Shown: positions 12,747 through 28,055 of the stretch, piece by piece
Layout: each line of letters opens with the position of its first letter
Position numbering within the stretch: position 1 is the stretch's first letter
DNA from: a virus
Direction: 5' to 3' (one strand)
DNA: 34,955 bases
UHGV virus genome: UHGV-0055450
Notes under the pieces: generated by a model
Database searches by the model: none
Told to the model about the DNA's origin: nothing
Seen by the model: only the letters and a program-made list of their open reading frames with translations
Position numbers and translations under genes: made by a program

Positions 12747-12795
12747 CATGTCACGAGTAGATTATGCATGATGAATTTGATGTGTTTTGAATACT

Positions 12796-12821
12796 GCCGC
12801 CAACTATGGCGGCTTTATTTT
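12796..12821 (+). terminator. Rho-independent terminator
   Basis: GCCGCC-(AACTAT)-GGCGGC followed by TTTATTTT. Confidence 0.65.
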
Positions 12822-12832
12822 GCATGGTACTA

Positions 12833-12847
12833 TTACCACAACGGTAA
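12833..12847. promoter_or_regulatory. Operator palindrome upstream of the small terminase gene
   Basis: Perfect TTACCacaacGGTAA; a second partial copy TTACCacggtGGTtA (12851-12865) abuts the start codon. Confidence 0.5.
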
Positions 12848-12864
12848 CTATTACCACGGTGGTT

Positions 12865-13461
12865 ATGATGCTTGCTGAACCTAAAACCTATAAACGCAAA
12901 TCAACGCAATTTAAGCCACTAACAGCAATGCAGGAGGCTTATTGCCAGTCATACATCAAAACGCCTGAAAACCAGACTCAGGCAGCGATTAACGCAGGAT
13001 TCTCCCCAAATACAGCGGCAGTTAAAGCCAGTGTCATGATGCGCGATGAACGCATTCAGAAACGGATTGCCGAGTTGATGGAGGAGCGCAACAAACGAAT
13101 GCGCGTCAGTGCTGATTACGTTCTCATGCGCCTGGTGGAGATCGACCAGATGGACGTGATCGACATCCTCAACGACGATGGGAGCCTTAAACCAATCCGT
13201 GAGTGGCCGAAAATCTGGCGCACTACGCTTAGTGGCTTTGATCTGTCATCGACCATCATGAACATGAACGAGGATTCGATAGAGACAATCCTCAAAAAAA
13301 TTAAATGGCCTGACAAGGTGAAGAACCTTGAGCTGATTGGTAAGCATGTTGATGTCAACGCGTTCAAAGAACGTCTGGATGTTAATGTGAATGTGACAAT
13401 TGCTGATCGCATAGCAGCAGCCAGGAAGCGACTCAAAGAACGTCAGGATGGTAATCAGTGA
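12865..13461 (+). CDS. Terminase small subunit
   Basis: LTAMQEAYCQSYIKTPENQTQAAINAGFSPNTAAVKASVMMRDERIQKRI fits small-terminase HTH families; directly upstream of and overlapping the large terminase. The track ORF start at 12787 would include the terminator and operator, so the ATG at 12865 is preferred. Confidence 0.65.
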   Translation: MMLAEPKTYKRKSTQFKPLTAMQEAYCQSYIKTPENQTQAAINAGFSPNTAAVKASVMMRDERIQKRIAELMEERNKRMRVSADYVLMRLVEIDQMDVIDILNDDGSLKPIREWPKIWRTTLSGFDLSSTIMNMNEDSIETILKKIKWPDKVKNLELIGKHVDVNAFKERLDVNVNVTIADRIAAARKRLKERQDGNQ

Positions 13462-14933
13462 CAGATACAGCATTATCTCCTGAAGAGCAGTTGATCGAGG
13501 ATATTGCAGGGTTCACTCACGATCCGCTTGGCTATGCCCTCTATGCGTTCCCGTGGGGGGAAGAGGGGACTGAACTGGCACATGCCACCGGCCCACGTCA
13601 GTGGCAGGCAGATGCGTTCCGAGAGATACGTGATCACCTGCAGAATCCAGAGACGCGCTATCAGCCGCTTATGCTGGCGCGTGCTTCGGGTCACGGTATT
13701 GGTAAATCCGCATTCATCTCAATGCTGATCAACTGGGGCATGTCCACTTGCGAGGATTGTAAGGTCGTGGTGACCGCCAACACCGACAACCAGCTACGAA
13801 CGAAGACCTGGCCGGAAATTATCAAGTGGTCGAACCTTGCTATCACGAAAGACTGGTTTACCTGTACCGCTACCGCGATGTACAGCAATGACCCTGGGCA
13901 CGACAAGCGGTGGCGAGCTGACGCAATCCCCTGGTCTGAGCACAACACTGAGGCATTCGCCGGACTACACAACGAGCGCAAACGCATCATCGTGGTATTC
14001 GATGAAGCGTCGAACATTGCGGATCTGGTGTGGGAAGTTGCCGAGGGTGCGCTAACGGACGAAGACACTGAGATTATCTGGGTGGCGTTCGGAAACCCGA
14101 CGCGTAATACCGGACGTTTCCGCGAATGTTTCCGCAAATATAAACACCGCTGGAAAACTGCGCAGATTGACAGCCGGACGGTGGAAGGCACCAACAAACA
14201 GCAGTTGCAGAAATGGGTTGATGACTACGGGGAAGACAGCGACTTCGTTAAAATCCGTGTGCGCGGCATATTCCCGGATGCATCTGAATTGCAGTTTATC
14301 CCTACCGGACTTACTGACGAGGCAATGAAACGGGTGGTCACCGCTGCGCAGGTTGCACATGCTCCGGTGATAATCGGCGTTGACCCGGCATACTCAGGCG
14401 TTGATGACGCTGTGATATACCTGCGGCAGGGGCTGCACAGTAAGGTGCTGTGGACTGGCAACAAGACCACTGACGATCTGATTATGGCGAAGCGTATCGC
14501 TGACTTTGAAGACCAGTACCAGGCTGACGCAGTGTTCATCGACTTCGGTTACGGAACTGGTCTGAAGTCAATCGGTGACGGCTGGGGTCGTACATGGCAA
14601 CTTGTTCCGTTCGGTGGCGCGTCTACTGACCCGCAGATGCTCAACAAGCGTGGGGAGATGTTCAACTCATGTAAGACATGGCTGAGGCTGGGCGGCATGC
14701 TGGATGACCAGGAAACTGCAGACGACCTGTCGGCGGCAGAGTACAAAGTTCGAGTGGACGGTAAAATCGTTATCGAACCGAAGGAAGATATCAAAGAGCG
14801 ACTTGGGCGTTCGCCGGGTAAAGGCGATGCGCTGCTGCTGACGTTTGCTTTCCCGGTGTCGAAGCGCCTGCGACTTCCCTGGCAGCAGAACCAGCAAGGC
14901 AAGGCCATCACAGATTATGACCCGTATGCTTAA
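13458..14933 (+). CDS. Terminase large subunit
   Basis: Walker A GHGIGKS, Walker B IIVVFDEAS, nuclease-domain motif GVDPAYSGVDD; 491 aa; GTG start overlaps the small-subunit stop. Confidence 0.9.
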   Translation: MTDTALSPEEQLIEDIAGFTHDPLGYALYAFPWGEEGTELAHATGPRQWQADAFREIRDHLQNPETRYQPLMLARASGHGIGKSAFISMLINWGMSTCEDCKVVVTANTDNQLRTKTWPEIIKWSNLAITKDWFTCTATAMYSNDPGHDKRWRADAIPWSEHNTEAFAGLHNERKRIIVVFDEASNIADLVWEVAEGALTDEDTEIIWVAFGNPTRNTGRFRECFRKYKHRWKTAQIDSRTVEGTNKQQLQKWVDDYGEDSDFVKIRVRGIFPDASELQFIPTGLTDEAMKRVVTAAQVAHAPVIIGVDPAYSGVDDAVIYLRQGLHSKVLWTGNKTTDDLIMAKRIADFEDQYQADAVFIDFGYGTGLKSIGDGWGRTWQLVPFGGASTDPQMLNKRGEMFNSCKTWLRLGGMLDDQETADDLSAAEYKVRVDGKIVIEPKEDIKERLGRSPGKGDALLLTFAFPVSKRLRLPWQQNQQGKAITDYDPYA

Positions 14934-14984
14934 TCCGCTGGTGGGGATAATGTCGTTGATATCCTCTGATGAGGATAAAACAAA

Positions 14985-15010
14985 GCCAGCTCATCGGCTG
15001 GCTGTTTGTG
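14985..15010 (+). terminator. Terminator hairpin between convergent genes (large terminase and Gp49-like)
   Basis: GCCAGC-(TCATCG)-GCTGGC followed by TGTTTGTG, with an A-rich stretch upstream, so possibly bidirectional. Confidence 0.5.
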
Positions 15011-15023
15011 ACATGTCAATGTG

Positions 15024-15260
15024 TTATTGCTCGCTTAACTTCTGCTTCAGCAAGTAACCTTCAAGCATCCAGATTTTGTTTACAGCATTCTGCCGGGCAA
15101 TCTTCCGACCAATTTCTGCATCAAAATTTTCCGGACTTGCACAGGCACTCTCTCCGGTGACAGTGAAGCCATTCTTCAGCACCAGTACGCAGAATGTCAG
15201 CAGCTCCAGCTCGTCAGGCTGGTCTGGGATTTTTACGCTGTATGTTTCGCTTCTCTGCAC
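15024..15260 (-). CDS. Gp49-like phage protein (N4 gp49 / Sf6 gene 66 type), N-terminal region interrupted
   Basis: LLTFCVLVLKNGFTVTGESACASPENFDAEIGRKIARQNAVNKIW resembles this family from memory. The frame stays open upstream to 15380, but an in-frame TAA at 15381-15383 separates it from a well-placed ATG at 15395. Confidence 0.5.
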   Translation of the reverse strand: MQRSETYSVKIPDQPDELELLTFCVLVLKNGFTVTGESACASPENFDAEIGRKIARQNAVNKIWMLEGYLLKQKLSEQ

Positions 15261-15405
15261 ATGAGCAAAGCGAGCACCATCAGCGGCCGTAAAGTAATGT
15301 TCGCTGGCGATTATGCTGGCAATGTGTTCAGGAGTAACGCGAGCCGCCGTCTTACCCTTGGCTGCGATTTCTTTTTCGATTTACTGGTCGTTCATAATCT
15401 CACCT

Positions 15406-15430
15406 TAAAAAAATGCCCGGCGAACCGGGC
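15406..15430 (-). terminator. Rho-independent terminator downstream of the tRNA
   Basis: Minus strand reads GCCCGG-TTCG-CCGGGC followed by TTTTTTT. Confidence 0.6.
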
Positions 15431-15593
15431 GAACTGGAAGCAATGAGTTATGCCTTCCGTGGCTGTACTGGTTTACAGCATGAAGTCATCGCAATGGCGT
15501 CCTGCTGTAAAAAGGGCGGTGATAGTCCTTCAAGGGAAACCATCACCGCCAAGCCCCTGGAACTTCTGGCATCACGGTCCTTAGGCGTGATTC

Positions 15594-15670
15594 TGGCGTG
15601 GCATGCAGGATTCGAACCTGCGACCAACCGCTTAGAAGGCGGTTGCTCTGTCCAACTGAGCTAATGCCAC
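15594..15670 (-). tRNA. tRNA-Arg (anticodon UCU), phage-borne variant
   Basis: Reverse complement GTGGCAT-TA-GCTC-AGTTGGACA-GAGC-A-ACCGC-CTTCTAA-GCGGT-TGGTC-GCAGG-TTCGAAT-CCTGC-ATGCCAC-G-CCA folds as a cloverleaf with a 7-bp acceptor stem, TCT anticodon and encoded CCA. Body resembles argU; stems differ. Confidence 0.85.
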
Positions 15671-15992
15671 AACGCTGAGAGCACTTAGCCTGTTAAGGCG
15701 CCACACTTTGTCGCGGCTCCATAAATGCTCTCATCGTTGTACCCTCGTCTCTTCCGAGGCGTCACACCGAATCGCCGGGATGGTGAATCCCCGTGCGCGG
15801 AATAAAACCGCTCGACTTGCACATTCCGGCTACCTGGTTCGTTTGCCCGAGCAAGGGAGGGTGCCCCTTAAACGTATCCAGACCGCTATCGGCGCATGTG
15901 CCATACGCCGTACTGCTCAAAATAAAAGCTCACTCCACCTGTTCAATTTAACGACAAGCCAGTCAGGTTAGTAACCGGAATGAACTCTTTGG

Positions 15993-16007
15993 TTACCTGA
16001 AAGGTAA
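15993..16007. promoter_or_regulatory. Operator palindrome upstream of the virion gene cluster
   Basis: Perfect TTACCtgaaaGGTAAtaattt; the right half overlaps a TAATAA -10-like hexamer. Confidence 0.5.
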
Positions 16008-16097
16008 TAATTTGTGCGTTAAATGTCAACTATCTACGATAAATAAATCATATGTGGTTAAATTGGTAATAATTTAATTGCGTACGGAGTCATTGAT

Positions 16098-16304
16098 ATG
16101 TGCATGGGTAGCTCACCATCAGTGCCTGCAACACCAGAAGTTCAGGCAGCACCACAGGAGCAGGATGCCGCCGTTGTTGATGCCCGCGACGAAGAAACTC
16201 GTCGCCGTCGCGCTGCTGCTGGTCGTAGTTCTACGCTGCTTACCGGTTCTCAGGGTGACACATCAACCGCTAATACCAGCGGTAAAACGCTGCTTGGTCA
16301 GTAA
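16098..16304 (+). CDS. Hypothetical small protein (68 aa)
   Basis: ATG with GGAG upstream; low-complexity Ala/Arg-rich sequence; just upstream of the portal gene. Confidence 0.35.
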   Translation: MCMGSSPSVPATPEVQAAPQEQDAAVVDARDEETRRRRAAAGRSSTLLTGSQGDTSTANTSGKTLLGQ

Positions 16305-16318
16305 CCGGAGTCATTGAA

Positions 16319-17998
16319 ATGGCGGAAACAACTAAAGAGCGATTGAACAAACAGTTCGCACAACTTGAAAGCGAGCGTCAGTCGTTCGAGCCGCACTGGC
16401 GCGAGTTGAGTGATTACATCAACCCGCGTGGTTCCCGCTTTCTGACTTCTGAGGTCAACCGTAACGATCGACGCAATACACGCATTATTGATTCGACCGG
16501 GACTATGGCGGCGCGCACTCTCGCCAGCGGCATGATGTCAGGCATCACAAGCCCCGCGCGTCCGTGGTTTCGCCTGGCTACGCCAGATCCTGAAATGATG
16601 GATTATGGCCCTGTTAAGTTGTGGCTTGAGGCGGTGCAGAACCGCATGAACGATATGTTCAATAAGTCGAATCTCTACCAGTCTCTTCCGCAGTTATACG
16701 GAAGCCTCGGCACATACAGCACTGGTGCAATGGCGGTGCTGGAGGATGACGAGGACATCATTCGCACAATGCCATTCCCGATAGGCAGTTACTACCTGGC
16801 TAACTCACCTCGTGGCAGTGTGGACACCTGTTTTCGCAAGTTCTCTATGACTGTTCGTCAGCTTGTTCAGGAGTTCGGGCTAAATAACGTCAGCGAATCC
16901 GTAAAAAGCATGTGGGAAAGCGGCACCTACGAGAAGTGGATTGACGTGATGCATTCGGTTTACCCGAACATTGACCGCGATACATCGAAGCTGGATAGCA
17001 AGAACAAGCCATTCAAATCGGTTTATTACGAGGTTGGTGGCGATAACGACAAGTTGTTGCGTGAGTCCGGATTTGATGAGTTTCCAATTATGGCTCCGCG
17101 CTGGGAAGTTAATGGCGAAGATGTTTATGGATCATCATGCCCGGGTATGCTGGCGCTTGGACCTGTTAAGGCATTGCAGCTTCTCCAGAAGCGCAAGTCG
17201 CAGTTGATTGATAAAGCCACCAATCCGCCGATGGTTGCTCCGACTTCCCTCAAGAATCAGCGCGCCTCCCTTCTTCCTGGCGACATCACGTATATCGATC
17301 AGATTACTGGTCAGGATGGTTTCAGGCCTGCTTATCTGGTTAACCCCAGTACAGCAGATCTGGTAGCAGACATTCAGGACACTCGTCAAATCATTAACAG
17401 CGCCTACTTTGTCGATCTGTTCATGATGTTGCAGAACATCAATACCCGCTCGATGCCTGTTGAAGCGGTGATCGAAATGAAAGAAGAAAAACTTCTGATG
17501 TTGGGGCCGGTTCTGGAGCGTCTGAACGACGAATGTCTTAACCCTCTCATTGACCGCGCTTTCTCGATGATGGTGCGTAAAAACATGCTGCCGCCACCGC
17601 CTGACGCGATGGAAGGTATGCCCCTGAAGGTCGAATACATTTCCGTCATGGCTCAGGCGCAGAAGTCTATCGGCCTGTCCAGTCTGGCGTCCACGGTTAA
17701 CTTCATTGGTCAACTTGCGCAAGCGAAACCAGAAGCTCTCGACAAACTCAACGTTGATCAGGCGATCGATGCATTCGCTGATATGTCCGGAGTGTCTCCA
17801 ACCGTCATTGTTCCGCAGGAACAGGTTGAGCAGGCTCGCCAGCAACGGGCACAGCAACAACAGCAGCAACAAATGATGGCGATGGGGATGGCGGCGGCAC
17901 AGGGTGCCAAGACGCTAAGCGAAGCTAAAACTTCGGATCCGAGTGTTTTGTCAGCTATGGCGAATGCAGTTAGTGGTCAGGGTGGGCAATCACAATGA
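16319..17998 (+). CDS. Portal (head-to-tail connector) protein, T7 gp8-like
   Basis: 559 aa; follows the terminase genes and precedes scaffold and capsid; N-terminal MAETTKERLNKQFAQLESERQSFEPHWRELSDYINPRGSRF fits the podovirus connector family; C-terminal poly-Gln tract. Confidence 0.8.
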   Translation: MAETTKERLNKQFAQLESERQSFEPHWRELSDYINPRGSRFLTSEVNRNDRRNTRIIDSTGTMAARTLASGMMSGITSPARPWFRLATPDPEMMDYGPVKLWLEAVQNRMNDMFNKSNLYQSLPQLYGSLGTYSTGAMAVLEDDEDIIRTMPFPIGSYYLANSPRGSVDTCFRKFSMTVRQLVQEFGLNNVSESVKSMWESGTYEKWIDVMHSVYPNIDRDTSKLDSKNKPFKSVYYEVGGDNDKLLRESGFDEFPIMAPRWEVNGEDVYGSSCPGMLALGPVKALQLLQKRKSQLIDKATNPPMVAPTSLKNQRASLLPGDITYIDQITGQDGFRPAYLVNPSTADLVADIQDTRQIINSAYFVDLFMMLQNINTRSMPVEAVIEMKEEKLLMLGPVLERLNDECLNPLIDRAFSMMVRKNMLPPPPDAMEGMPLKVEYISVMAQAQKSIGLSSLASTVNFIGQLAQAKPEALDKLNVDQAIDAFADMSGVSPTVIVPQEQVEQARQQRAQQQQQQQMMAMGMAAAQGAKTLSEAKTSDPSVLSAMANAVSGQGGQSQ

Positions 17999-18291
17999 CA
18001 GATTACGAAGATGATCAACTGAAAGAAGAAAACGCCCGTAAGCAACGTGACATGGCACAGCGTGAAATTGATGACATTCGCTTTGTCATGAGCAGTGAAC
18101 AGGGGCGTCGCGTTGTCTGGTCGGTGCTGGAGAAAGGCCGTGTGTTTTCCGCTATCTCACCGATGGACGCTATGGCAATGGCATTTAATGAGGGGCAACG
18201 CAATCTGGCGCTGGAACTGTTTCAGCGCGTTATGGCGCATTGCCCTGAACAGTATTTGAAGATGGCCAAAGAGGCCAGTGAACAGGAGTGA
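17995..18291 (+). CDS. Hypothetical protein (98 aa)
   Basis: Start overlaps the portal stop; acidic, coiled-coil-like. Confidence 0.45.
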   Translation: MTDYEDDQLKEENARKQRDMAQREIDDIRFVMSSEQGRRVVWSVLEKGRVFSAISPMDAMAMAFNEGQRNLALELFQRVMAHCPEQYLKMAKEASEQE

Positions 18292-18293
18292 TC

Positions 18294-18989
18294 ATGAATT
18301 TATTTGAGCGTTTGCTGTATCGCCGTCTTTGCAATGAGCAACCAGTCGATGGTGGAGCAGCTCCGGCTGCGTCAGAACCGTCAGCGCCTGCAGGTGATAA
18401 CCCTGCTCCAGTTGGTGATCCATCACAACAAGAAGGTGATAAGCCGCAACCTGTTGCTGATGGCGATAAACCTGCTGATGACAAAAAGCCTGAAAGCGAT
18501 AAGCAGGATGAAAAAAAGGACGGCGATAAACCAGAGGGTGCGCCTGAGAAGTACGAGTTTCAGGCTGCCGAAGGCGTAGAGCTGGATACAGAAGCGTTGA
18601 AGGAATTCGAGCCGGTGGCGCGAGAACTTAACCTGACCAACGAGCAAGCGCAAAAGCTGGTTGATGCTTATCCGAAGATTCTGGCAGGTGTTCAGCAGCG
18701 CCAGGCAGAAGCCTGGCAGAAAACAACCGAGCAGTGGGCTGCGGATGTAAAAGCTGACAAAGAAATCGGTGGCGACAAGTTGATTTCTAACCTTAGCGCC
18801 GCACAGCGTGCGCTTGACCAGTTCGGGACACCTGAACTCAAAGAATATCTGAACACCACCGGGCTGGGTAATCACCCTGATCTGGTCAAAACGTTCGTGA
18901 AAATCGGAAAGGCGATGTCTGAAGATGGCATGGTCACCGGTGGTAATGAAGGCCAGCGTAGTGCGGCCGAAGTGCTCTATGGCAAATAA
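18294..18989 (+). CDS. Scaffolding-like protein
   Basis: Highly acidic and Lys-rich with an Asp/Lys/Pro low-complexity region (KPADDKKPESDKQDEKKDGDKPEG); lies between portal and capsid; AGGAG 6 nt upstream of the ATG at 18294. Confidence 0.55.
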   Translation: MNLFERLLYRRLCNEQPVDGGAAPAASEPSAPAGDNPAPVGDPSQQEGDKPQPVADGDKPADDKKPESDKQDEKKDGDKPEGAPEKYEFQAAEGVELDTEALKEFEPVARELNLTNEQAQKLVDAYPKILAGVQQRQAEAWQKTTEQWAADVKADKEIGGDKLISNLSAAQRALDQFGTPELKEYLNTTGLGNHPDLVKTFVKIGKAMSEDGMVTGGNEGQRSAAEVLYGK

Positions 18990-18997
18990 GAGAGGAA

Positions 18998-19990
18998 ATG
19001 ACAATGGCTGTTAAAGGCTTAACTGCGCTAACGCTGGCTGACTGGGGTAAGCGCGTCGATCCAAACGGGAAAGTCGATAAGATTATCGAGCTTCTCAGTC
19101 AAACTAACCCGATCCTTCAGGATATGCCTTTTGTCGAAGGGAACCTTCCTACCGGACACCGAACCACCATTCGTTCTGGTTTACCTTCAGCTACCTGGCG
19201 TTTGCTGAACTATGGCGTACAGCCAAGCAAATCAACCACAGTGCAGGTAACCGATTCCGTGGGCATGCTGGAAACCTATGCTGAAGTCGATAAGTCACTG
19301 GCTGATCTGAACGGCAATACCGCCGAATTCCGCCTGTCTGAAGACCGCGCATTTATTGAAGCGATGAATCAGCAGATGGCGCAGACGCTGTTTTATGGTG
19401 ATTCCAGCGTTAACCCTCAGCAGTTTATGGGACTGTCCTCCCGCTATTCCAGCCTGTCTGCGGGTAATGCTCAGAACATCATTGATGCTGGTGGCACGGG
19501 TACAGATAACACCTCAATCTGGTTAGTGGTGTGGGGCGAAAACACCGTGCATGGCATCTTCCCGAAAGGGCAGAAGGCTGGCATCCAGATGGAAGATAAA
19601 GGCCAGGTGACACTGGAAGATGCTAATGGCGGCAAGTACGAAGGCTATCGCACCCATTATAAATGGGATAACGGACTTGCTCTGCGTGACTGGCGTTATG
19701 TTGTTCGCATTGCAAACATCGATGTCAGCAATCTTTCAGAACCTTCCTCTGCCGCAAATATTGCGAAGTTGATGGTTAAAGCACTGCATCGCATTCCAAA
19801 CCGTGGCATGGGCCGCCCGGTGTTCTACATGAACCGCACTGTAGGCCAGGCTCTTGATCTGCAATCTCTGGAGAAAACATCTCTGGCTATCAGCGTAAAA
19901 GAGACTGAAGGCGAGTGGTGGACTTCATTCCGTGGTGTACCAATCCGTGAAACTGATGCGCTTCTGGAAACAGAAGCCCGCGTGGTGTAA
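18998..19990 (+). CDS. Major capsid protein
   Basis: About 330 aa, directly after the scaffold gene and followed by a hairpin; assigned by size and synteny. The ATG at 19004 has better spacing from the AGAGGA box. Confidence 0.65.
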   Translation: MTMAVKGLTALTLADWGKRVDPNGKVDKIIELLSQTNPILQDMPFVEGNLPTGHRTTIRSGLPSATWRLLNYGVQPSKSTTVQVTDSVGMLETYAEVDKSLADLNGNTAEFRLSEDRAFIEAMNQQMAQTLFYGDSSVNPQQFMGLSSRYSSLSAGNAQNIIDAGGTGTDNTSIWLVVWGENTVHGIFPKGQKAGIQMEDKGQVTLEDANGGKYEGYRTHYKWDNGLALRDWRYVVRIANIDVSNLSEPSSAANIAKLMVKALHRIPNRGMGRPVFYMNRTVGQALDLQSLEKTSLAISVKETEGEWWTSFRGVPIRETDALLETEARVV

Positions 19991-20041
19991 CGCCTGTTAT
20001 TAACCTGTGGGTCGTAACAGACCCACTAATGGAGAAAGAAG

Positions 20042-20479
20042 ATGATCACCGACAAACTGTTGATGTTCTCCGAAGCTCAGGCGGTTACGAATACCGCGGC
20101 TTCTACTGACGTAATCGATCTCGGTCCAATTGACGGAAAACGTCGTGATATCGGCGTGGGTTACCCGCTTGAGTTTTGGGCGCTGGTTAACACAGCCGCC
20201 GCGGCAAGCGGTGATGCAACTGTAAACATCCAGTTGCAGACGAGTGAGGATAACAGCTCATGGACCACTATTTATGATAGTGGCGCACTGGCAAAGACCG
20301 CCCTGACAGCAGGTAAACGAGTTGTTTCTGCAAAGGTGCCTGCCGGTGTTCAGCGATATCTGCGTGTTAACTACTCCGTCGCAACTGGCCCACTAACGGC
20401 TGGCGAATTCACTGCTGGTATCAGTCTTGATGTTGATGCCAATACGCCGTATCCGATCCGCTCAAAAGTAACTGGTTAA
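20042..20479 (+). CDS. Hypothetical virion protein (possible capsid decoration protein)
   Basis: 145 aa immediately after the capsid gene; GGAGAAAG upstream of the ATG. Confidence 0.5.
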   Translation: MITDKLLMFSEAQAVTNTAASTDVIDLGPIDGKRRDIGVGYPLEFWALVNTAAAASGDATVNIQLQTSEDNSSWTTIYDSGALAKTALTAGKRVVSAKVPAGVQRYLRVNYSVATGPLTAGEFTAGISLDVDANTPYPIRSKVTG

Positions 20480-20489
20480 GGTGATATCG

Positions 20490-20825
20490 ATGTCAGGTGA
20501 GAAACCAAGATACCGCGTTCTGCGCCTCTCTCATATCCATAACACTCTGTGGCCGGAGGGGGCAGAAATCGAATACGAAGGTGAGCCTGGTAGCGCACTG
20601 GAACCTGTTAACGATGCAGCCAGACAGGCAAAAGCAAAAGTTGCAGGAAAGGTGTCAATGGCAGCAACCAGCACCAAAATCATCAACGATGTGTCAGATG
20701 ATGGTGAACTGGATAAGCTCCGTGAAGAGTACGAATTGCTCTTTAACGAGAAGCCACACCATAACGCCAAAGCCGAAACGCTCCGCGAGAAGATCGCAGA
20801 TAAGCGTAAAGAACTGGGCGTGTAA
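20490..20825 (+). CDS. Hypothetical protein (111 aa)
   Basis: ATG at 20490 with AAGGTGA 5 nt upstream. The track ORF starts at 20481. Confidence 0.45.
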   Translation: MSGEKPRYRVLRLSHIHNTLWPEGAEIEYEGEPGSALEPVNDAARQAKAKVAGKVSMAATSTKIINDVSDDGELDKLREEYELLFNEKPHHNAKAETLREKIADKRKELGV

Positions 20826-20843
20826 GCCTCGCGGATCAGACAA

Positions 20844-20863
20844 GGGGCTTCGGCCCCTTTATT
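20844..20863 (+). terminator. Rho-independent terminator or attenuator
   Basis: GGGGC-TTCG-GCCCC followed by TTTATT. Confidence 0.65.
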
Positions 20864-20875
20864 GCAGGAGTGTAT

Positions 20876-21199
20876 ATGGAACTCGTAAACCTCAAAACCG
20901 GCACTGACAGCTACCAGGATGAGAGCGGAGAAACCAGAACTCGCGATGAATACCCGTGGGGGCTGTGCATCACGCTGAATAACGACACATTGAATAAGCT
21001 GAAGGCGCAACCTCAGGGCGTCGGAACAGAAGTGATGATAACTGCAAAGGCTGTTATTCGAGGCCTGTCTGCCAGAGAAACTGACGATGGTGTTAATCGC
21101 AGCGCCGATCTGCAGATCACTGATATGGCGATCGCTCCTGTTTCCGGGGATGTAGAAAAATCAGCGGCTGAAACTCTGTACGGTAACGGAGGTGAGTGA
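20876..21199 (+). CDS. Hypothetical virion-module protein (107 aa)
   Basis: ATG at 20876 with GCAGGAG upstream; the C-terminus KSAAETLYG repeats the scaffold C-terminal motif RSAAEVLYG. Confidence 0.45.
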   Translation: MELVNLKTGTDSYQDESGETRTRDEYPWGLCITLNNDTLNKLKAQPQGVGTEVMITAKAVIRGLSARETDDGVNRSADLQITDMAIAPVSGDVEKSAAETLYGNGGE

Positions 21200-21804
21200 T
21201 GGCCTCTGTAGTAGAGATCTGTAATCGTGCGCTGTCCAATATTGGCAACAGCCGCAGCATTAACAGCCTGACGGAAGCCAGCAAGGAAGCGGGGGAATGT
21301 TCGCTGCACTTTGAGGCCTGCCGTGATGCTGTGCTTTCTGATTTTGACTGGAACTTTGCTACCAAACGCGTGGCGCTTGCAGATACGAGCAATCCACCGC
21401 CTGACTGGGAATATGCGTACCAGTACCCGTCAGATTGTCTGCGCATTACTGAAATTATGCTTCCTGGTGTACGCAATCCAACAGCAGCAATGCGCGTTCA
21501 GTACGAAGTTGGTGCAGACACCAACGGAACAGGAAAGTTGATCTACACAGACCAGCCTCAGGCATGGCTCAAGTATGTCTCTCGCGTTACAGATGTGAAC
21601 ATGTTTGATGCCATTTTTATGGAGGCGTTGGCCTGGCGTCTTGCGGCAGCTATTAACATGGCGCTGACTGGGAATGCAGACCTCGGTACGTTTGCCCTCA
21701 ATATGTACAATCGCGTGATTCTTAGTGCTGGCTCGCATAGCCAGAATGAATCACAGGAACCACAGCCACCGGTTGACGAGTTTACCATTGCGAGGTTGTC
21801 CTGA
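21199..21804 (+). CDS. Tail tubular protein A-like (T7 gp11-like adaptor)
   Basis: About 200 aa; N-terminal ICNRALSNIGNSRSINSL...DWNFAT resembles T7 gp11 (VNDILASIGEPPVSTL...GWTFNI); positioned before the large tubular protein. Confidence 0.55.
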   Translation: MASVVEICNRALSNIGNSRSINSLTEASKEAGECSLHFEACRDAVLSDFDWNFATKRVALADTSNPPPDWEYAYQYPSDCLRITEIMLPGVRNPTAAMRVQYEVGADTNGTGKLIYTDQPQAWLKYVSRVTDVNMFDAIFMEALAWRLAAAINMALTGNADLGTFALNMYNRVILSAGSHSQNESQEPQPPVDEFTIARLS

Positions 21805-24269
21805 TGGCTATCAGTTGGATCCAGCCCAGCTTTGCCGGTGGTGAGATTGGACCGTCTTTGTACGGTCGTATCGACATGGCGAAGTACCAGGTGGCATTGC
21901 GCAAGTGCGATAACTTTATCGTGCGGCAGTATGGCGGCGTTGAGAATCGACCTGGTACGCGTTTTGTCGGTGCCGCCAAATACCCAAATCGGAAATGCCG
22001 CCTGATCCCGTTCCAGTTCTCGACGGTTCAGACTTATGCTCTGGAGTTCGGACACCAGTACATGCGCGTTATCAAAGATGGTGCGTTGGTGCTGAACAGC
22101 AGCAATGTTATTTATGAAATTGCCACGCCATATACTGAAGCCGATCTGTTCCGAATTAAATTCACGCAAAGCGCAGACGTGCTTACGCTGGTTCATCCGG
22201 CATACCCGCCGAAAGAGTTGCGCCGCTATGCGCATGACAACTGGCAACTGGTTGATGTGGTAACGAAGAACGGGCCATTTGAAGATATCAATATTGACGA
22301 GTCAGTGACGGTTTATGCCAGCGCCAGCACCGGGACAATTACGTTAACGGCAAGCGCCTCAATTTTTGGCGCGGAGCAGGTAGGCAAATTGTTCTATCTG
22401 GAACAGCCTGCAGTGGATTCTGTGCCGGTATGGGAAACCAGTAAGAGTACGTCGATTGGCGATATTCGCCGTGCAGACAGTAACTACTATCGCGCCGTTA
22501 CAGCAGGAAAAACAGGTACTTTGCGCCCTTCGCATACAGAAGGCACATCATGGGATGGCTGGGGCGGATCCGGTGATGATGATACTGGCATTGAGTGGGA
22601 ATATCTGCACAGTGGTTTTGGCATTGCCCGTATCACTGCTGCAAATGGAACTACTGCAACTGCCGAGGTGATTTCCTATATCCCTTCGCAGGTCGTTGGC
22701 GAGGATAATGCCAGCTATAAATGGGCTAAATATGCCTGGAACAGTGTTAATGGTTATCCTGGCACTGTTGTTTATTATCAACAACGTCTTTACTTCGCCG
22801 CATCGACTGCGTTTCCTCAGACTATCTGGGCCAGCCGTACCGGGGATTATAAGGATTTTGGCAAAAGCAATCCTACGCAGGATGACGACAGAATTATCTA
22901 CACCTATGCCGGACGTCAGGTTAATGAGATCCGCCACCTGATTGATGTTGGTTCTCTGGTGGCGCTGACTTCCGGAGGTGAGTACGTCATCACCGGCGAC
23001 CAGAACAAAGTGTTAACCCCATCATCATTTGCATTCAGCTCTCAGGGATCAAATGGCTCAAGCAACGTCCCGCCAATTGCCGTGGCGAATATTGCTCTGT
23101 TCGTCCAGGAGAAAGGCAGCGTTGTCCGTGATCTGGCCTACTCATTCGATGTTGACGGCTATCAGGGGAACGACCTGACCATCCTTGCCAATCATCTTTT
23201 TCAGAAGCACAGCATTGTTGACTGGTGCTTCTCGATTGTCCCTTACTCCAGTGCCTTCTGCATTCGTGATGACGGTAAATTACTGGTGATGACCTATTTG
23301 CGTGATCAGCAGGTTTTTGCATGGGCACCACAATCCAGTACCGGAAAATATGAAAGCACATGCAGTATCAGCGAAGGCAATGAAGATGCGGTGTATTTCG
23401 TCGTTAACCGAACCGTTAACGGGCAAACAGTGAGATACATCGAGCGACTGTCCAGCCGTTTATTTACCAGCGATGAAGATGCTTTCTTTGTTGATTCTGG
23501 CCTTAGCTATGATGGAAGAAATACGTCTGACAGAACGATGATCATCACTGGTGGTTCTGGCGAATGGGATTACCGCGCGGAATATACAATCAGTGTTTCT
23601 GGTGGTGCGTACTTCACCAGTAGTGATGTCGGCGCGCAACTACAGTTCCCTTATACCGGACCTGATACTGGCGATGAGGTGTCAAAAGAATTACGTTGCG
23701 ACATTATTTCTGTAACCAGTAATACCGCTGTAGTGGTTCGTGCTAACAGGAACGTCCCGCCATCCCTCAGGAATGTGGCCACCACGAACTGGCAGATGGC
23801 GCGCCGGACATTTGGAGGCCTGTCTCATCTTGAAGGCCAGACCGTAAACATTCTCTCTGATGCGAACGTGGAACCACAGAAAGTGGTTTCCGGAGGTGCC
23901 GTCACGCTGGAATCTCCGGGGGCTGTAGTGCACATCGGCCTGCCAATAACTGCTGAATTCGAAACACTGGATATCAACATTAACGGACAGGAAACGCTGC
24001 TGGACAAAAAACAGGTGATCCCCTCCGTTACTCTGGTTGTGAATGCCAGTCGCGGCATCTGGGCGACTACGCCCGGCGGTAAATGGTACGAATATCCACA
24101 GCGTGAATTCGAGTTCTACGATGATCCTGTTGATGATGCTACCGGAAAAGTAGAAGTGAAACTGGACAGTAACTGGGGCAAAAACGGGCGTGTAAAAATC
24201 CGTCAGCTTGATCCGTTGCCGCTGTCTGTTCTTGCCGTTATTCCTCGCCTTACTGTTGGGGGATTCTGA
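21804..24269 (+). CDS. Tail tubular protein B-like (T7 gp12-like nozzle)
   Basis: 821 aa; start overlaps the upstream stop (TGATG); size and position match podovirus gp12. Confidence 0.6.
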   Translation: MAISWIQPSFAGGEIGPSLYGRIDMAKYQVALRKCDNFIVRQYGGVENRPGTRFVGAAKYPNRKCRLIPFQFSTVQTYALEFGHQYMRVIKDGALVLNSSNVIYEIATPYTEADLFRIKFTQSADVLTLVHPAYPPKELRRYAHDNWQLVDVVTKNGPFEDINIDESVTVYASASTGTITLTASASIFGAEQVGKLFYLEQPAVDSVPVWETSKSTSIGDIRRADSNYYRAVTAGKTGTLRPSHTEGTSWDGWGGSGDDDTGIEWEYLHSGFGIARITAANGTTATAEVISYIPSQVVGEDNASYKWAKYAWNSVNGYPGTVVYYQQRLYFAASTAFPQTIWASRTGDYKDFGKSNPTQDDDRIIYTYAGRQVNEIRHLIDVGSLVALTSGGEYVITGDQNKVLTPSSFAFSSQGSNGSSNVPPIAVANIALFVQEKGSVVRDLAYSFDVDGYQGNDLTILANHLFQKHSIVDWCFSIVPYSSAFCIRDDGKLLVMTYLRDQQVFAWAPQSSTGKYESTCSISEGNEDAVYFVVNRTVNGQTVRYIERLSSRLFTSDEDAFFVDSGLSYDGRNTSDRTMIITGGSGEWDYRAEYTISVSGGAYFTSSDVGAQLQFPYTGPDTGDEVSKELRCDIISVTSNTAVVVRANRNVPPSLRNVATTNWQMARRTFGGLSHLEGQTVNILSDANVEPQKVVSGGAVTLESPGAVVHIGLPITAEFETLDININGQETLLDKKQVIPSVTLVVNASRGIWATTPGGKWYEYPQREFEFYDDPVDDATGKVEVKLDSNWGKNGRVKIRQLDPLPLSVLAVIPRLTVGGF

Positions 24270-24733
24270 TGATCGATGTTCAAATTATTCCCGCAACCGA
24301 AGAGCATCTTCAGATGATTTTGCCGGATGTTCGTCAGGCTGATATTGACGAACTGTATGCGGTATCGCTGATGACTACCGAAGATGCGCTGCGTGTTGGT
24401 CTGCGCACTGCGACTATGGCCTGGTCAGGGTTCGCGAACGGAGAACTGGTAACCATGTTTGGTGTATCTCCGGCGTCAATGATCGGTGGCAATGGTACGC
24501 CCTGGCTGGTCGGAACCAGCCGTATTGAAAAATATCAGAAGACATTTCTTCGCCACTGCCGACCTGTATTGCAGCAGATGCTGGCAGTTTATCCGCGCCT
24601 GGAAAACTACGTCGACGAGCGAAACCATGTTGCCAAAGCATGGCTGCACTGGCTTGGATTCAGGCTTGAAGAAGCCGCGCCTTATGGTGCTCTTGGTCTT
24701 AATTTCCACAGATTTCACATGGAGAGAAAATAA
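24269..24733 (+). CDS. Internal virion protein, gp13-like position
   Basis: 154 aa, coupled to flanking genes; assigned by synteny. Confidence 0.45.
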   Translation: MIDVQIIPATEEHLQMILPDVRQADIDELYAVSLMTTEDALRVGLRTATMAWSGFANGELVTMFGVSPASMIGGNGTPWLVGTSRIEKYQKTFLRHCRPVLQQMLAVYPRLENYVDERNHVAKAWLHWLGFRLEEAAPYGALGLNFHRFHMERK

Positions 24734-25308
24734 TGTGCGATCCGGTTATTGCTGGTGGCGCAATGCTCGCCATGAGTGGCATTCAGGCATACACCCAGTA
24801 CCAACAGGGAAAGTATGCCTCGAAGGTTGCGGAAGCGAACGCAGATATAGCCACAGCTCAGGCAAATGATGCAATAAACAGAGGTAACGCTGAAGCTGAG
24901 CAACGACGCAGAGAGACCCGACAGCGGCTTGGTACACAGGCGGCGACAATGGGGGCTACCGGCGCTGATTTATCTACAGGTAACGCGCTGGATATATTTG
25001 GCGACACTGCCCAGTTTGGCGCTCTTGATTCGCTGACGACGGTGAATAACGCGCAACGCGAGGCTTACGGTTATCAGGTTCAGGCTGCCAACTATAAAGC
25101 AGAAGCCAGTTCAGCCCGTAAACAGGGGAATGTGGGAGCAGCAACAACATTGCTCACTGCGCCTCTGAAGGCATACGGTGCGTACCAGATGTTTGGTGGG
25201 ACGTGGAGTCCGTTCTCTAAAGGAAGTACATCTAGTGGTGGGACGCCAATGTTATCTAACTCAGGTTTTATGAATTCTGACTCCCGATTCAAAATAGGAG
25301 GTTACTGA
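24733..25308 (+). CDS. Internal virion or ejection protein, gp14-like position
   Basis: 191 aa, Ala/Gly/Gln-rich; start overlaps the upstream stop (TAATG). Confidence 0.45.
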   Translation: MCDPVIAGGAMLAMSGIQAYTQYQQGKYASKVAEANADIATAQANDAINRGNAEAEQRRRETRQRLGTQAATMGATGADLSTGNALDIFGDTAQFGALDSLTTVNNAQREAYGYQVQAANYKAEASSARKQGNVGAATTLLTAPLKAYGAYQMFGGTWSPFSKGSTSSGGTPMLSNSGFMNSDSRFKIGGY

Positions 25309-28055
25309 TGCCTGTTGTTCCTACTACATCCGGACGCCAGGTGCAAAGTCGTGGTGTGCAAACCGGTGGTTTTCAGACCTTCGATGTTCCTCAAGCAGGT
25401 CAGGTGCTGGCGAATGTCGCAGATCAGTATGCGGTGGCATATGGTGAAGCTAGGCAGAAAGCGAATGTTGCTATGGCCCAGGAGGCGTTACTGCAATTTA
25501 ACCAATTTGCAGATGACCAGATTAACAACCCTGAAAATGGGCTGATTTCTAAACAGGGTAAAAACGCTCTTGGTCAGAGTGACGCTGTTATGAAAAATAT
25601 GCAGGAAAGGGCTCAGGCATTATTAGGCTCAATTCCTGAAAGTGAGGAAAGGAATAAATTATCCTTTCAACTCCAGCAGTCTATGCAGTCTTATTACAAT
25701 CAGGCACGTCGATATGAAGTTGGGCAGTTTCAGCAATTCCAAGATCAAACGTATTTGTCAGGAAATGCATTGGCTGTCACTCAGTCTGCGGGGCTATATA
25801 GCGATAACCAAGCATTTGTCGATTTAGCCAAGCAGCGATTTGAATCTATTGATCAATACGCTGATGCGCATGGGCTTCCTGATGAGTGGCGTGTTCAGCA
25901 GAAAACTCAGCTCAAGGAACAAATGGGGCAGCAAGCATGGATAGGAAATATCGCTCAAAAATACAACGAGTTTCTTCAGGTTAATGGAGAGCCAGGGGAT
26001 CTTGATGGTGTGAGTCGTGCAATATCACATGGTAATTCATTGGATGCTCGTGGTTTACGTAATAATAACCCTGGTAATATTGAAGCGAGCAAATCTAACC
26101 CGTGGGAAGGTCAGATCGGTAGTGATGGACGTTTTGCAACGTTTGCTACCCCTGAGCATGGAATCCGCGCGTTGGGTAAAAATATGTTGTCTTACCAGCG
26201 TCAAGGCTATGACACCGTTAGCGAGATTGTTAATCGCTATGCTCCGGCTAGTGATGGTAATAATACTGATGCTTATATTAGGGCATTGTGTAGTGAGCTT
26301 GGTGTTGGGGAGAATGATCAGCTTGATATCTCTAACCCAAAGACACTAGCTGCTTTATGTGCTGGGATTATTAAACACGAAAATGGCAGTATGCCTTATA
26401 GCACCGAACAGCTTGAAACTGGTATCTCGGCAGCCCTTGGTCTAACTAACCTTGATTCACCTAAGCGTTATACTGGCAATGCGGCATTTGACGCTATGAG
26501 CCCTCAAATGCAAATACAGGCATTGAGGCAGGCTAATGAGCTGAGAAATCAGTACCGCCAGCAGTATGCGGACCAGCTTAGCACCGTAGTTAAAGATGCA
26601 TATTCAGCCCTTGATGAAGGATTGAAACCTGAGAAGTTACCTTCTGAGGACGATTTTATCCGGGCCAATGGTCCGCGCATTGGCGCTATGAAGTGGAAGG
26701 ATATGCAGGCGCAGATACAATATGGAGGTGTCATTGGTGCCGCTAAAGACCTCACTCCAGAAGGACGACAAGACATTCTTGAACGTTTACGTCCACAGGA
26801 TCCAAATGTTCCTGGATTTGCAGCTAACCAGCAACGCTGGGAGAAAATGCAGGCCAAATTTAAAGAGATGGATAGGGAGTGGGAGATTCAGCAGGGAAGA
26901 AACAGGTTCGTGTCTTCAATGCAAAATAACTTCCCGCTGGACCCTAACGACAAAAACAATCAGGCAGCGGTAGACCGTTATTTCGCGCAGGATATCGCGC
27001 CTTCGTTTTCCATATCTGATCCGCAGAGCATCAATACACTGGTCACCGTCACAACTAAAAGCGGCATGATACCAACTCAGGTTAAAACAATGCTTAACAG
27101 TGGAGCAACATCAAGAGATCCTGCGCTGGTTGTCCCGATGGCAAAATTCTACGGTCAGTTATTCGATAATAATCCGGCGGCAGCGGCAACACTTGATAAA
27201 AGTACGATGGCATTTTACGGCAAGGTTTACGATTATTCCCGCGCTGGCGTGCCGGAGGATAAGGCTGTTGATATGGCTTACAGCCAGGTGTTCCAACAGG
27301 ATGACCGAATGAAACAGATGCTTTCCACTGCCATGCGAGACAAAAAATATGTCGCGGCGAGGGCAACTGCTGCACAAAATAACGCCAGCAGTCTGACTTC
27401 CTTTGGTTCGTGGTCTCCGGATATTACCGATCCAGGAAAATCAAATGCGGCCTATCAGCGAGATTACCAGACAATTTACGATGCTAACTTTGTACAGACA
27501 GGTGGCGATGCAGAACAGGCTGAGAAAATGACCAATGCCATGATCAGAACCACCTGGGGAGTTTCTACAGTTAATGGCAAAGCAGAGGTTATGAAGTATG
27601 CACCTGAGGCATTGTACGGAGTAAATAATGGTGCTGGTAACTGGATACAGGGGCAGTGGGAGCAGGAAAAACGCGAGCTTAAATCAAAATCCTTTGGCGG
27701 TCCTCGCAGTGATACGGACTTAATACTTGTTTCTGATGGCCTTACGGCAAGGGATAGGAGTTATGCTGTTATGGTTTTACAGCCTGACGCAAACGGAGCG
27801 ATAGAACCGAGAAATTATATTGGAGAAAATGGTCTCCCTGTTCGTTTCAAGCCGGATCAGCTGACATCTCCAATGTACAGGCAAACCATTCAGTTCCAGC
27901 AACAGCGTGTTGATGAGGCTAGAGTGCGGAGAGAAGGCAATCCGCTGCCGCAGTTCAGCAATAAAGATGGATATACTCCTCCAGATCTGACCAAACCATT
28001 CGGTTATGGTTCAGCCAATTACCTTCCGAGCAATATATACGCAGGGGGCAAATAA
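25308..28055 (+). CDS. Internal virion (core/ejection) protein, gp15-like, with a possible cell-wall hydrolase-like segment
   Basis: 915 aa with AGGAGG RBS; the segment LRNNNPGNIEASKSNPWEGQIGSDGRFATFATPEHGIRALGKNM resembles motifs in virion-associated murein hydrolases; this is inference. Confidence 0.55.
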   Translation: MPVVPTTSGRQVQSRGVQTGGFQTFDVPQAGQVLANVADQYAVAYGEARQKANVAMAQEALLQFNQFADDQINNPENGLISKQGKNALGQSDAVMKNMQERAQALLGSIPESEERNKLSFQLQQSMQSYYNQARRYEVGQFQQFQDQTYLSGNALAVTQSAGLYSDNQAFVDLAKQRFESIDQYADAHGLPDEWRVQQKTQLKEQMGQQAWIGNIAQKYNEFLQVNGEPGDLDGVSRAISHGNSLDARGLRNNNPGNIEASKSNPWEGQIGSDGRFATFATPEHGIRALGKNMLSYQRQGYDTVSEIVNRYAPASDGNNTDAYIRALCSELGVGENDQLDISNPKTLAALCAGIIKHENGSMPYSTEQLETGISAALGLTNLDSPKRYTGNAAFDAMSPQMQIQALRQANELRNQYRQQYADQLSTVVKDAYSALDEGLKPEKLPSEDDFIRANGPRIGAMKWKDMQAQIQYGGVIGAAKDLTPEGRQDILERLRPQDPNVPGFAANQQRWEKMQAKFKEMDREWEIQQGRNRFVSSMQNNFPLDPNDKNNQAAVDRYFAQDIAPSFSISDPQSINTLVTVTTKSGMIPTQVKTMLNSGATSRDPALVVPMAKFYGQLFDNNPAAAATLDKSTMAFYGKVYDYSRAGVPEDKAVDMAYSQVFQQDDRMKQMLSTAMRDKKYVAARATAAQNNASSLTSFGSWSPDITDPGKSNAAYQRDYQTIYDANFVQTGGDAEQAEKMTNAMIRTTWGVSTVNGKAEVMKYAPEALYGVNNGAGNWIQGQWEQEKRELKSKSFGGPRSDTDLILVSDGLTARDRSYAVMVLQPDANGAIEPRNYIGENGLPVRFKPDQLTSPMYRQTIQFQQQRVDEARVRREGNPLPQFSNKDGYTPPDLTKPFGYGSANYLPSNIYAGGK

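Follow-up and report, generated by a model that had tools for sequence, protein, structure and literature searches.

A probable young nonsense allele of an acb4-family gene in a phiV10/epsilon15-like prophage

The DNA analysed here, a stretch of 34,955 nucleotides (UHGV virus genome UHGV-0055450) that we call the window, is a phiV10/epsilon15-like (Uetakevirus) temperate prophage in which a gene of the acb4 anti-CBASS sponge family is interrupted at its fifth codon. We consider it very probable that this gene was knocked out by a recent single-base nonsense change. Compared with its closest relatives, the interrupted copy appears to be a real, heritable and young nonsense pseudogene allele of the gene for the E. 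coli protein WP_126875155.1. Both the family and the intact parent protein are already in public databases, and the lesion is an ordinary point-mutation knockout.

The interrupted gene and its cargo slot

The earlier note on this DNA had described a strong ribosome-binding site followed by ATG-AAC-GAC-CAG-TAA at 15395-15381 on the minus strand, with the same frame running on stop-free into Gp49-like sequence. The window letters confirm the first statement at exactly those positions, and translation and homology confirm the second. On the minus strand the order is GCCCGGTTCGCCGGGC-ATTTTTTT-AAGGTGAG-ATT-ATG-AAC-GAC-CAG-TAA-ATC-GAA..., and the letters around the gene start contain GCCCGGTTCGCCGGGCATTTTTTTAAGGTGAGATTATGAACGACCAGTAAATCGAAAAAGAAATC. 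Translation of 15395-15024 (minus strand) gives MNDQ, a stop, then IEKEIAAKGKTAARVTPEHIASIIASEHYFTAADGARFAHVQRSETYS...KQKLSEQ and a stop; past the premature TAA the frame meets no further stop until 15026-15024. Forty stop-free codons are not improbable by themselves, as (61/64)^40 is about 0.15, and the open frame is judged to be more than chance because of its homology. The whole unit is 372 nt long, the same length as in intact homologues. The features of the locus are as follows.

15024..15395, minus strand: acb4 (Gp49/PF13876-family) gene, broken at codon 5; length and position as in the intact 123-aa genes
15381..15383, minus strand: premature ochre TAA, codon 5, placed by alignment and per-base comparison with intact alleles
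15393..15395, minus strand: native ATG start, common to intact homologues and the annotated CDS start in three of them (L001, L002, L004)
15399..15406, minus strand: Shine-Dalgarno sequence AAGGTGAG, 3-nt spacer to the ATG; identical in phiV10-type homologues
15024-15026, minus strand: final TAA of acb4, read from the window letters
15024..15260, minus strand: residual 78-aa ORF from the GTG at 15260, the form annotated by gene callers, also on ENA contigs
15407..15430, minus strand: GC hairpin GCCCGGTTCGCCGGGC (hairpin part 15430-15415) with a T7 tract, abutting the Shine-Dalgarno sequence; conserved in phiV10-type relatives
14984..15003, minus strand: terminator-like hairpin just past the acb4 stop; the phiV10 annotation has a putative rho-independent terminator in the corresponding position
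15594..15670, minus strand: tRNA-Arg (anticodon TCT), upstream of acb4 on the same strand (ARAGORN; Rfam RF00005, 73 bits)

About 6 kb around the locus is 96-98% identical to phiV10, the O157 typing phages 9/10, ZX5, HEMP4 and others, and further genes of the window code for an integrase, RecT, a CI-like repressor and P-like replication proteins. The acb4 gene lies antisense between terL (13458-14933, plus strand) and the tRNA-Arg gene, with the portal gene (16319-17998, plus strand) beyond. In phiV10 (p03) and in the APEC-O117 prophage, this slot holds an intact 372-nt 'Gp49 family' gene. In PAS61 (L126, 2525-2947) and TL-2011b (L127, 2520-2867) it holds unrelated minus-strand ORFs of 140 and 115 aa, respectively. 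A Pfam search of these two ORFs gave no match; they could be other anti-defence genes. Since the slot of relatives contains either acb4 or an unrelated small ORF, the interval between terL and tRNA-Arg (window 14934-15593) is a variable cargo position among Uetakeviruses. The structural-gene products encoded over 12787-28055 have the same lengths as those of relatives, so acb4 is the only broken gene within that region.

The acb4 gene is an antisense cargo cassette between terminator-like hairpins. The hairpin and T7 tract at 15407..15430 resemble an intrinsic terminator and probably mark the end of the tRNA-Arg transcript. A second terminator-like hairpin, at 15515-15550 on the minus strand, also lies between the tRNA gene and the acb4 start. 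A search for a sigma-70-like promoter upstream of acb4 gave no match, and one possibility is that the cassette is transcribed by read-through from the tRNA promoter. An Rfam search of 14700-16400 (E<=1) returned the tRNA alone, with no RNA element in the leader. An 83-aa ORF on the plus strand (15413-15664) overlaps the tRNA gene antisense; it is annotated in phiV10 (p04), is also called on four other contigs (L128, L130, L133, L134) and has no Pfam match on record. It is probably a spurious call.

Related genes are widespread. A megablast search with the 521-nt locus matched 779 of 5,426 complete E. coli genomes, and almost all of these matches bear the annotation 'Gp49 family protein'. On this count, prophages of E. 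coli, lambdoid as well as Uetakevirus-like, commonly carry acb4-family genes.

Origin and distribution of the stop codon

When the DNA is aligned with that of four intact homologues, the premature TAA stands opposite CAA (Gln5) in the three closest and opposite GAC in phiV10. The window allele and all four share the Shine-Dalgarno sequence, the ATG and the gene length. A single C>T change on the minus strand at 15383 (G>A on the plus strand; gene nt 13) separates CAA from TAA, and in this lineage it turned the glutamine codon into an ochre stop. The protein that results from restoring Q5 exists in nature. It is WP_126875155.1, an E. coli Gp49 family protein identical to the window translation save at position 5, and it is encoded in the same Uetakevirus slot on four contigs (L130-L133: NCBI GCA_003988215.1, one from ENA and two from Logan). 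Relative to these four, the window gene carries C13T and 4-5 further changes, all synonymous, because the proteins are identical. With the nonsense change as the sole coding difference and the rest synonymous, the lineage was evidently under purifying selection until very recently. Intact 372-nt orthologues thus occupy the same slot and stand one base apart at the stop codon, which is the pattern of a recent pseudogene. Among the readings offered by the earlier note, a recent nonsense mutation is the one that these comparisons support, given CAA in the closest homologues and a near-identical intact parent in the same position.

The window allele is also a mosaic. Approximately nt 30-245 of the gene (window 15150-15365) match the lambdoid mEpX1/EC24 allele almost exactly, while the leader upstream and the last third, at the 3' end, agree with the phiV10/APEC-O117 allele. 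The pattern points to a patch acquired by recombination in the protein's variable middle. Any such patch would be older than the nonsense mutation, because the four intact contigs have it too.

The earlier note had also allowed for a sequencing error. A single base separates the window from the intact allele, so that one miscalled letter in a true CAA codon could produce the pattern. The identical TAA, however, occurs in five independent datasets, being present in an IMG/VR prophage and in three ENA metagenome assemblies besides the window. The IMG/VR prophage (IMGVR_UViG_2563366888_000019) is derived from an isolate and shows 62 differences from the window over 8.1 kb, none of them between 13929 and 16030; given these differences, it is a separate genome. 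The ENA assemblies (ERZ27278337, ERZ28626985 and ERZ27246402) were found via the called 78-aa product, and for two of the three, different assemblers or projects are given. Across 470 nt that take in the TAA, IMGVR_UViG_2563366888_000019, ERZ27278337 and ERZ28626985 are 100% identical to the window. The site itself lies outside any homopolymer run longer than 3 nt. The same stop in separate public assemblies means that it is no sequencing error, and we give a sequencing or assembly error practically no chance.

The third ENA contig (L134, from ERZ27246402) carries the TAA and has only three differences from the window in 1451 nt, every one inside the broken ORF. These changes, at contig positions 684, 699 and 719 (gene nt 253, 268 and 288), fall within 36 nt of one another and are all changes to G. 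Two of them hit otherwise invariant residues (C85G and N90D). They represent either early pseudogene decay or a sequencing artefact, and as a possible read artefact the contig was not relied on as a sign of relaxed selection. Apart from this doubtful contig, no secondary decay past the stop was found in the TAA carriers. The absence of downstream decay fits a very recent event, and it would fit continued constraint too.

The allele is rare. Codon 5 is TAA in one IMG/VR contig and CAA in at least 120. A search for the TAA sequence pattern in species-representative genomes and the JGI metagenome collection returned no matches, and the allele was found in none of the 5,426 complete E. coli genomes. 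Because all copies of the TAA allele are essentially identical, they trace to one mutational event in one young prophage lineage that is in circulation.

Protein family and consequences of the stop

The label 'Gp49-like' given by the earlier note is right and can be made more precise, as the protein belongs to PF13876, the Acb4 anti-CBASS sponge family. With the stop repaired, the protein matches Pfam PF13876 (Phage_gp49_66) with 125.8 bits against a cut-off of 27 (E=9.7e-37), residues 20-120 aligning with profile positions 1-82. All 120 listed homologues carry the same domain. Over residues 19-123, the repaired protein and N4 gp49 are 48% identical, and a sequence search of the PDB gave a weak match to 9E4W (E=0.011), the structure of SPO1 Acb4. 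That protein belongs to PF13876, a family long uncharacterised under the name 'N4 Gp49/Sf6 gene 66' (Chang et al., 10.1101/2024.12.30.630793). It is a tetramer that sequesters the CBASS signals 3'3'-cGAMP, cUA and related molecules, and a sandwich formed by its β1-β3 sheet makes the dimer interface (10.1101/2024.12.30.630793). Eight Acb4 homologues bind 3'3'-cGAMP, and the Gram-negative ones bind 3'3'-cAA as well (10.1101/2024.12.30.630793). Table S3 of the same work lists 1,331 family members, including phiV10 Q287B5, epsilon15 A0AR14, Sf6 Q716B1 and N4 A0MZD7; the exact motif NGFTVTGESACASPENFD of the window protein is present in 243 of the sequences in that table (10.1101/2024.12.30.630793). 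The direct orthologues of the window gene (phiV10 p03, epsilon15 and Sf6 gp66) are thus in the family list of Chang et al.

An AF2 model of residues 6-123, computed as if the stop were absent, has a pLDDT of 85.9. Its elements are helices at 17-23, 32-43 and 88-116 and strands at 24-31, 61-68 and 73-79. It consists of N-terminal helices, three β-strands and a long C-terminal helix, the same protomer fold as in 9E4W. In a Foldseek search of the PDB, the top 13 matches were all 9E4W chains (probability 1.00, target TM up to 0.73), with an rmsd of 2.5-4 A over 89-97 columns in six of them and 6-13 A in the others. Ten ligand contacts of SPO1 Acb4 were considered (K36, F48, E49, V56, Y57, F62, N63, I66, T70 and K81), of which K36 and K81 fall outside the phmmer alignment to 9e4w_A. 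Three of the eight mapped contacts are identical (F48=F77, F62=F91 and I66=I95) and five differ (E49/T78, V56/C85, Y57/A86, N63/D92 and T70/I99). Such divergence is expected, because the Gram-negative homologues are reported to have altered specificity and to bind 3'3'-cAA. Taken together, homology and the predicted fold identify the gene as, in all likelihood, an acb4-family anti-CBASS sponge gene by descent. By analogy with characterised members, its clade would form tetramers that bind cyclic dinucleotides.

The family resemblance goes along with clear differences. The window protein shares its Pfam family and predicted fold with SPO1 Acb4, and it differs in having only ~20-28% identity and ~28 extra N-terminal residues, with three of eight mapped contacts identical. 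It also differs in that the window copy is interrupted at codon 5 and probably gives no protein. N4 gp49 is of the same family and comes from a phage of the same host species, and it has the segment equivalent to window residues 19-45 that is absent from the 78-aa ORF. N4, on the other hand, is a virulent schitovirus with its gene in an early anti-defence hotspot, whereas a temperate podovirus carries the window gene as a cargo cassette; N4 gp49 ends in a Cys-rich C-terminal tail and its gene is intact, and the window protein has no such tail and a broken gene. The nearest relatives, WP_126875155.1 and phiV10 p03 (YP_512257.1), share with the window the slot (terL < acb4 < tRNA-Arg < portal), the Shine-Dalgarno sequence, the start and the length. 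The phiV10 protein differs in the variable middle third, where the window allele has its lambdoid (mEpX1-like) patch.

The stop falls in front of a part of the protein that is conserved. The best 120 of more than 8,000 homologues are 115-185 aa long, and each covers 97-100% of residues 6-123. The mean frequency of the commonest residue per column is 0.82 for residues 1-45 and 0.84 for residues 46-123 in 60 distinct proteins from IMG/VR loci, a set chosen by its 5' pattern and so biased over the first ~10 residues. The check proposed in the earlier note, namely whether residues 5-45 are conserved as protein in intact homologues, therefore comes out positive, as residues 1-45 are as conserved as residues 46-123. 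The opposite case, homologues that begin at the equivalent of 15260, is absent from the 120 listed, all of which cover residues 6-45. None of 113 other sampled homologue ORFs is truncated.

A separate N-terminal truncation was observed in a closely related acb4 of lambdoid prophages. It consists of a 100-aa product (P0127), present on 14 contigs, that begins MSRVTAIISALV and is joined to acb4 at about residue 36. The loci include L135 (3001-3303), L136 and L137; at the one locus examined, chromosomal L135, IS66 genes lie nearby. The MSRVTAIISALV start appears similar to that of the lambda Rz spanin. This form is probably a deletion.

In the window, ribosomes that load at the intact Shine-Dalgarno sequence and ATG would make only Met-Asn-Asp-Gln and then terminate. 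They would find no canonical in-frame restart codon for 120 nt, the GTG at 15260 being the first and lacking a usable Shine-Dalgarno sequence. In-frame canonical and near-cognate starts and their anti-Shine-Dalgarno energies were examined between the stop and 15260, and no usable internal ribosome-binding site or start was found; the only codons with start potential in that interval are ATC, ATT and ATA, without a Shine-Dalgarno sequence. The GTG at 15260 is the first in-frame ATG, GTG or TTG past the stop, and its sole Shine-Dalgarno-like element is a GGUG 14 nt upstream (-2.8 kcal/mol, compared with a calculated duplex energy of -4.8 kcal/mol, with 4-nt spacing, at the native start).

This bears on a further proposal of the earlier note, that MNDQ is a short leader peptide followed by termination and reinitiation at GTG 15260, yielding a functional 78-aa protein. 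The frame is open past the stop, and the 78-aa ORF still scores PF13876 at E=9e-32, reaching only positions 19-82 of the 82-position profile. It is recorded by gene callers and by the PHROG profile phrog_16684 (length 78), and the ligand-contact positions mapped from SPO1 Acb4 lie inside it. On the other hand, the GTG is 120 nt from the stop and poorly served, and it is an ordinary internal valine codon, for which the phiV10 and APEC-O117 alleles have a codon other than GTG. Nor is the stop conserved, with CAA at at least 120 IMG/VR loci and TAA in one clonal allele, and residues 6-45 are covered by all 120 listed homologues. N4 gp49 has the N-terminal segment too. The restarted product would lack the N-terminal helices and β1, which in SPO1 Acb4 is part of the β1-β3 dimer sandwich. 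We regard reinitiation as quite improbable, and the leader peptide with restart is left unsupported by the absence of the stop from at least 120 homologous loci and by the poor Shine-Dalgarno sequence. No evidence was found for a regulatory or toxic role of the MNDQ short ORF.

The profile phrog_16684 matches residues 46-123 end to end (E=2e-46). It appears to derive from truncated calls of this kind, and not from a real family of short proteins.

Regulatory short ORFs, termination-reinitiation and the lambda 'bar' minigenes are known systems open to comparison. The window resembles them in its strong Shine-Dalgarno sequence and very short ORF (4 codons plus UAA) ahead of an open frame. It is unlike them in that the ORF is a mutation of one lineage, with no restart codon near the stop.

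A leaky stop is another way in which the gene might stay active. Full-length protein would be made at a reduced level through UAA read-through or an ochre-suppressor tRNA of the host or the phage. The perfectly kept downstream frame, with no frameshift or second stop, speaks for this, as does the tRNA gene immediately upstream. The frame, however, is explained by the youth of the allele, which is 4-5 synonymous differences from its intact parents. The sole tRNA in the 35-kb window is tRNA-Arg(TCT) and not a suppressor with a TTA anticodon. Moreover, acb4 itself ends in TAA (15026-15024), and hence TAA does function as a stop in this setting. Among the E. coli terminators UAA is the most efficient, with spontaneous read-through of roughly 1e-4 to 1e-3. 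A leaky stop is therefore very improbable. A suppressor tRNA encoded beside the gene was considered as a candidate and rejected, as the adjacent tRNA is Arg(TCT) and the window has no other.

The knockout by a nonsense change thus remains the preferred explanation. A 78-aa product would be short of the N-terminal helices and of β1, one strand of the three-stranded sheet on which the Acb4 dimer interface is built. The missing part corresponds to model residues 1-40 and includes helix 17-23, β1 (24-31) and most of helix 32-43, and residues 17-43 are modelled with a pLDDT of 91-96. With an early stop, no usable restart and part of the fold missing, the allele is most likely null, and from the sequence evidence we think loss of function very likely. 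The translatable intact frame that a functional Acb4 member needs is broken here by the TAA at codon 5. Residual activity of a truncated product is conceivable, because all the mapped ligand-contact positions of SPO1 Acb4 fall within the retained 78-aa part; a little translation could also come from read-through of the UAA or from inefficient starts at GTG 15260 or near-cognate codons. If the allele is null, the phage would no longer blunt CBASS, nor would it trip guard systems that sense sponges.

Why the sponge gene may have been lost

Neutral loss of a dispensable cargo gene is the null hypothesis, because the slot is variable and the allele is rare and clonal. There is also a possible adaptive cause. 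The guard systems PanDA, Panoptoo and Panoptes fire once a sponge depletes their decoy cyclic dinucleotide, so that an active Acb4 could be a liability in hosts that carry them, and the nonsense allele could have been selected. It is a proposal about what brought the mutation about and does not conflict with the nonsense-pseudogene explanation.

Several observations on other phages bear on this proposal. PanDA of E. coli MS 185-1 restricts Acb4-encoding phages, and expression of acb4 alone triggers it (10.64898/2026.08.10.743972). N4 gp49 binds c-di-AMP at 111 nM and triggers PanDA (10.64898/2026.08.10.743972). Most escapers of phage Bas69 from PanDA have SNPs that create premature stops in acb4 (10.64898/2026.08.10.743972). 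Acb4 triggers Panoptes and Panoptoo too, SPO1 Acb4 in the case of Panoptoo. Finally, deletion of the acb4-sequestin frees phage Ab09 from Panoptes (10.64898/2026.06.04.730250).

The window offers points on both sides. Its protein is close to N4 gp49 (48% identity), a validated PanDA trigger. The stop is clean and early in a prophage region that is otherwise intact (12787-28055), the allele persists in at least five datasets, and most of the Bas69 escapers from PanDA carry the same kind of acb4 lesion. Against selection, the allele is rare, at one contig to at least 120 in IMG/VR, and its single clonal origin is predicted equally well by neutral drift of an accessory gene. The 113 other sampled homologues, none of them truncated, give no sign of recurrent loss. 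We consider an adaptive knockout unlikely, though worth weighing beside the neutral account. The Bas69 escapers share with the window the gene family and the type of lesion, a SNP giving a premature stop (10.64898/2026.08.10.743972). They arose under a defined selection in a virulent phage, whereas the window holds a natural allele of a temperate one. That the TAA allele is the natural counterpart of such escapers, the sponge having been dropped because in hosts with such guard systems Acb4 triggers abortive infection or kills the lysogen, is a doubtful analogy that we would nevertheless put forward as a candidate.

Whichever cause applies, the finding changes how such genes are to be read. 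The 78-aa ORF reported by gene callers should be annotated as an acb4 (Gp49-family) pseudogene, and where phiV10/epsilon15-like prophages have a 'Gp49 family protein', the name can be taken to mean an anti-CBASS sponge. The two alleles form a natural isogenic pair, with CAA in GCA_003988215.1 and three further contigs and TAA in the window and four other assemblies, and this pair could be used to gauge whether the Acb4 sponge is costly to a temperate phage in hosts with guard systems. If the TAA allele is indeed the natural counterpart of the laboratory escapers, it would show from the field that guard systems make anti-CBASS sponges truly costly and cause circulating prophages to lose them.
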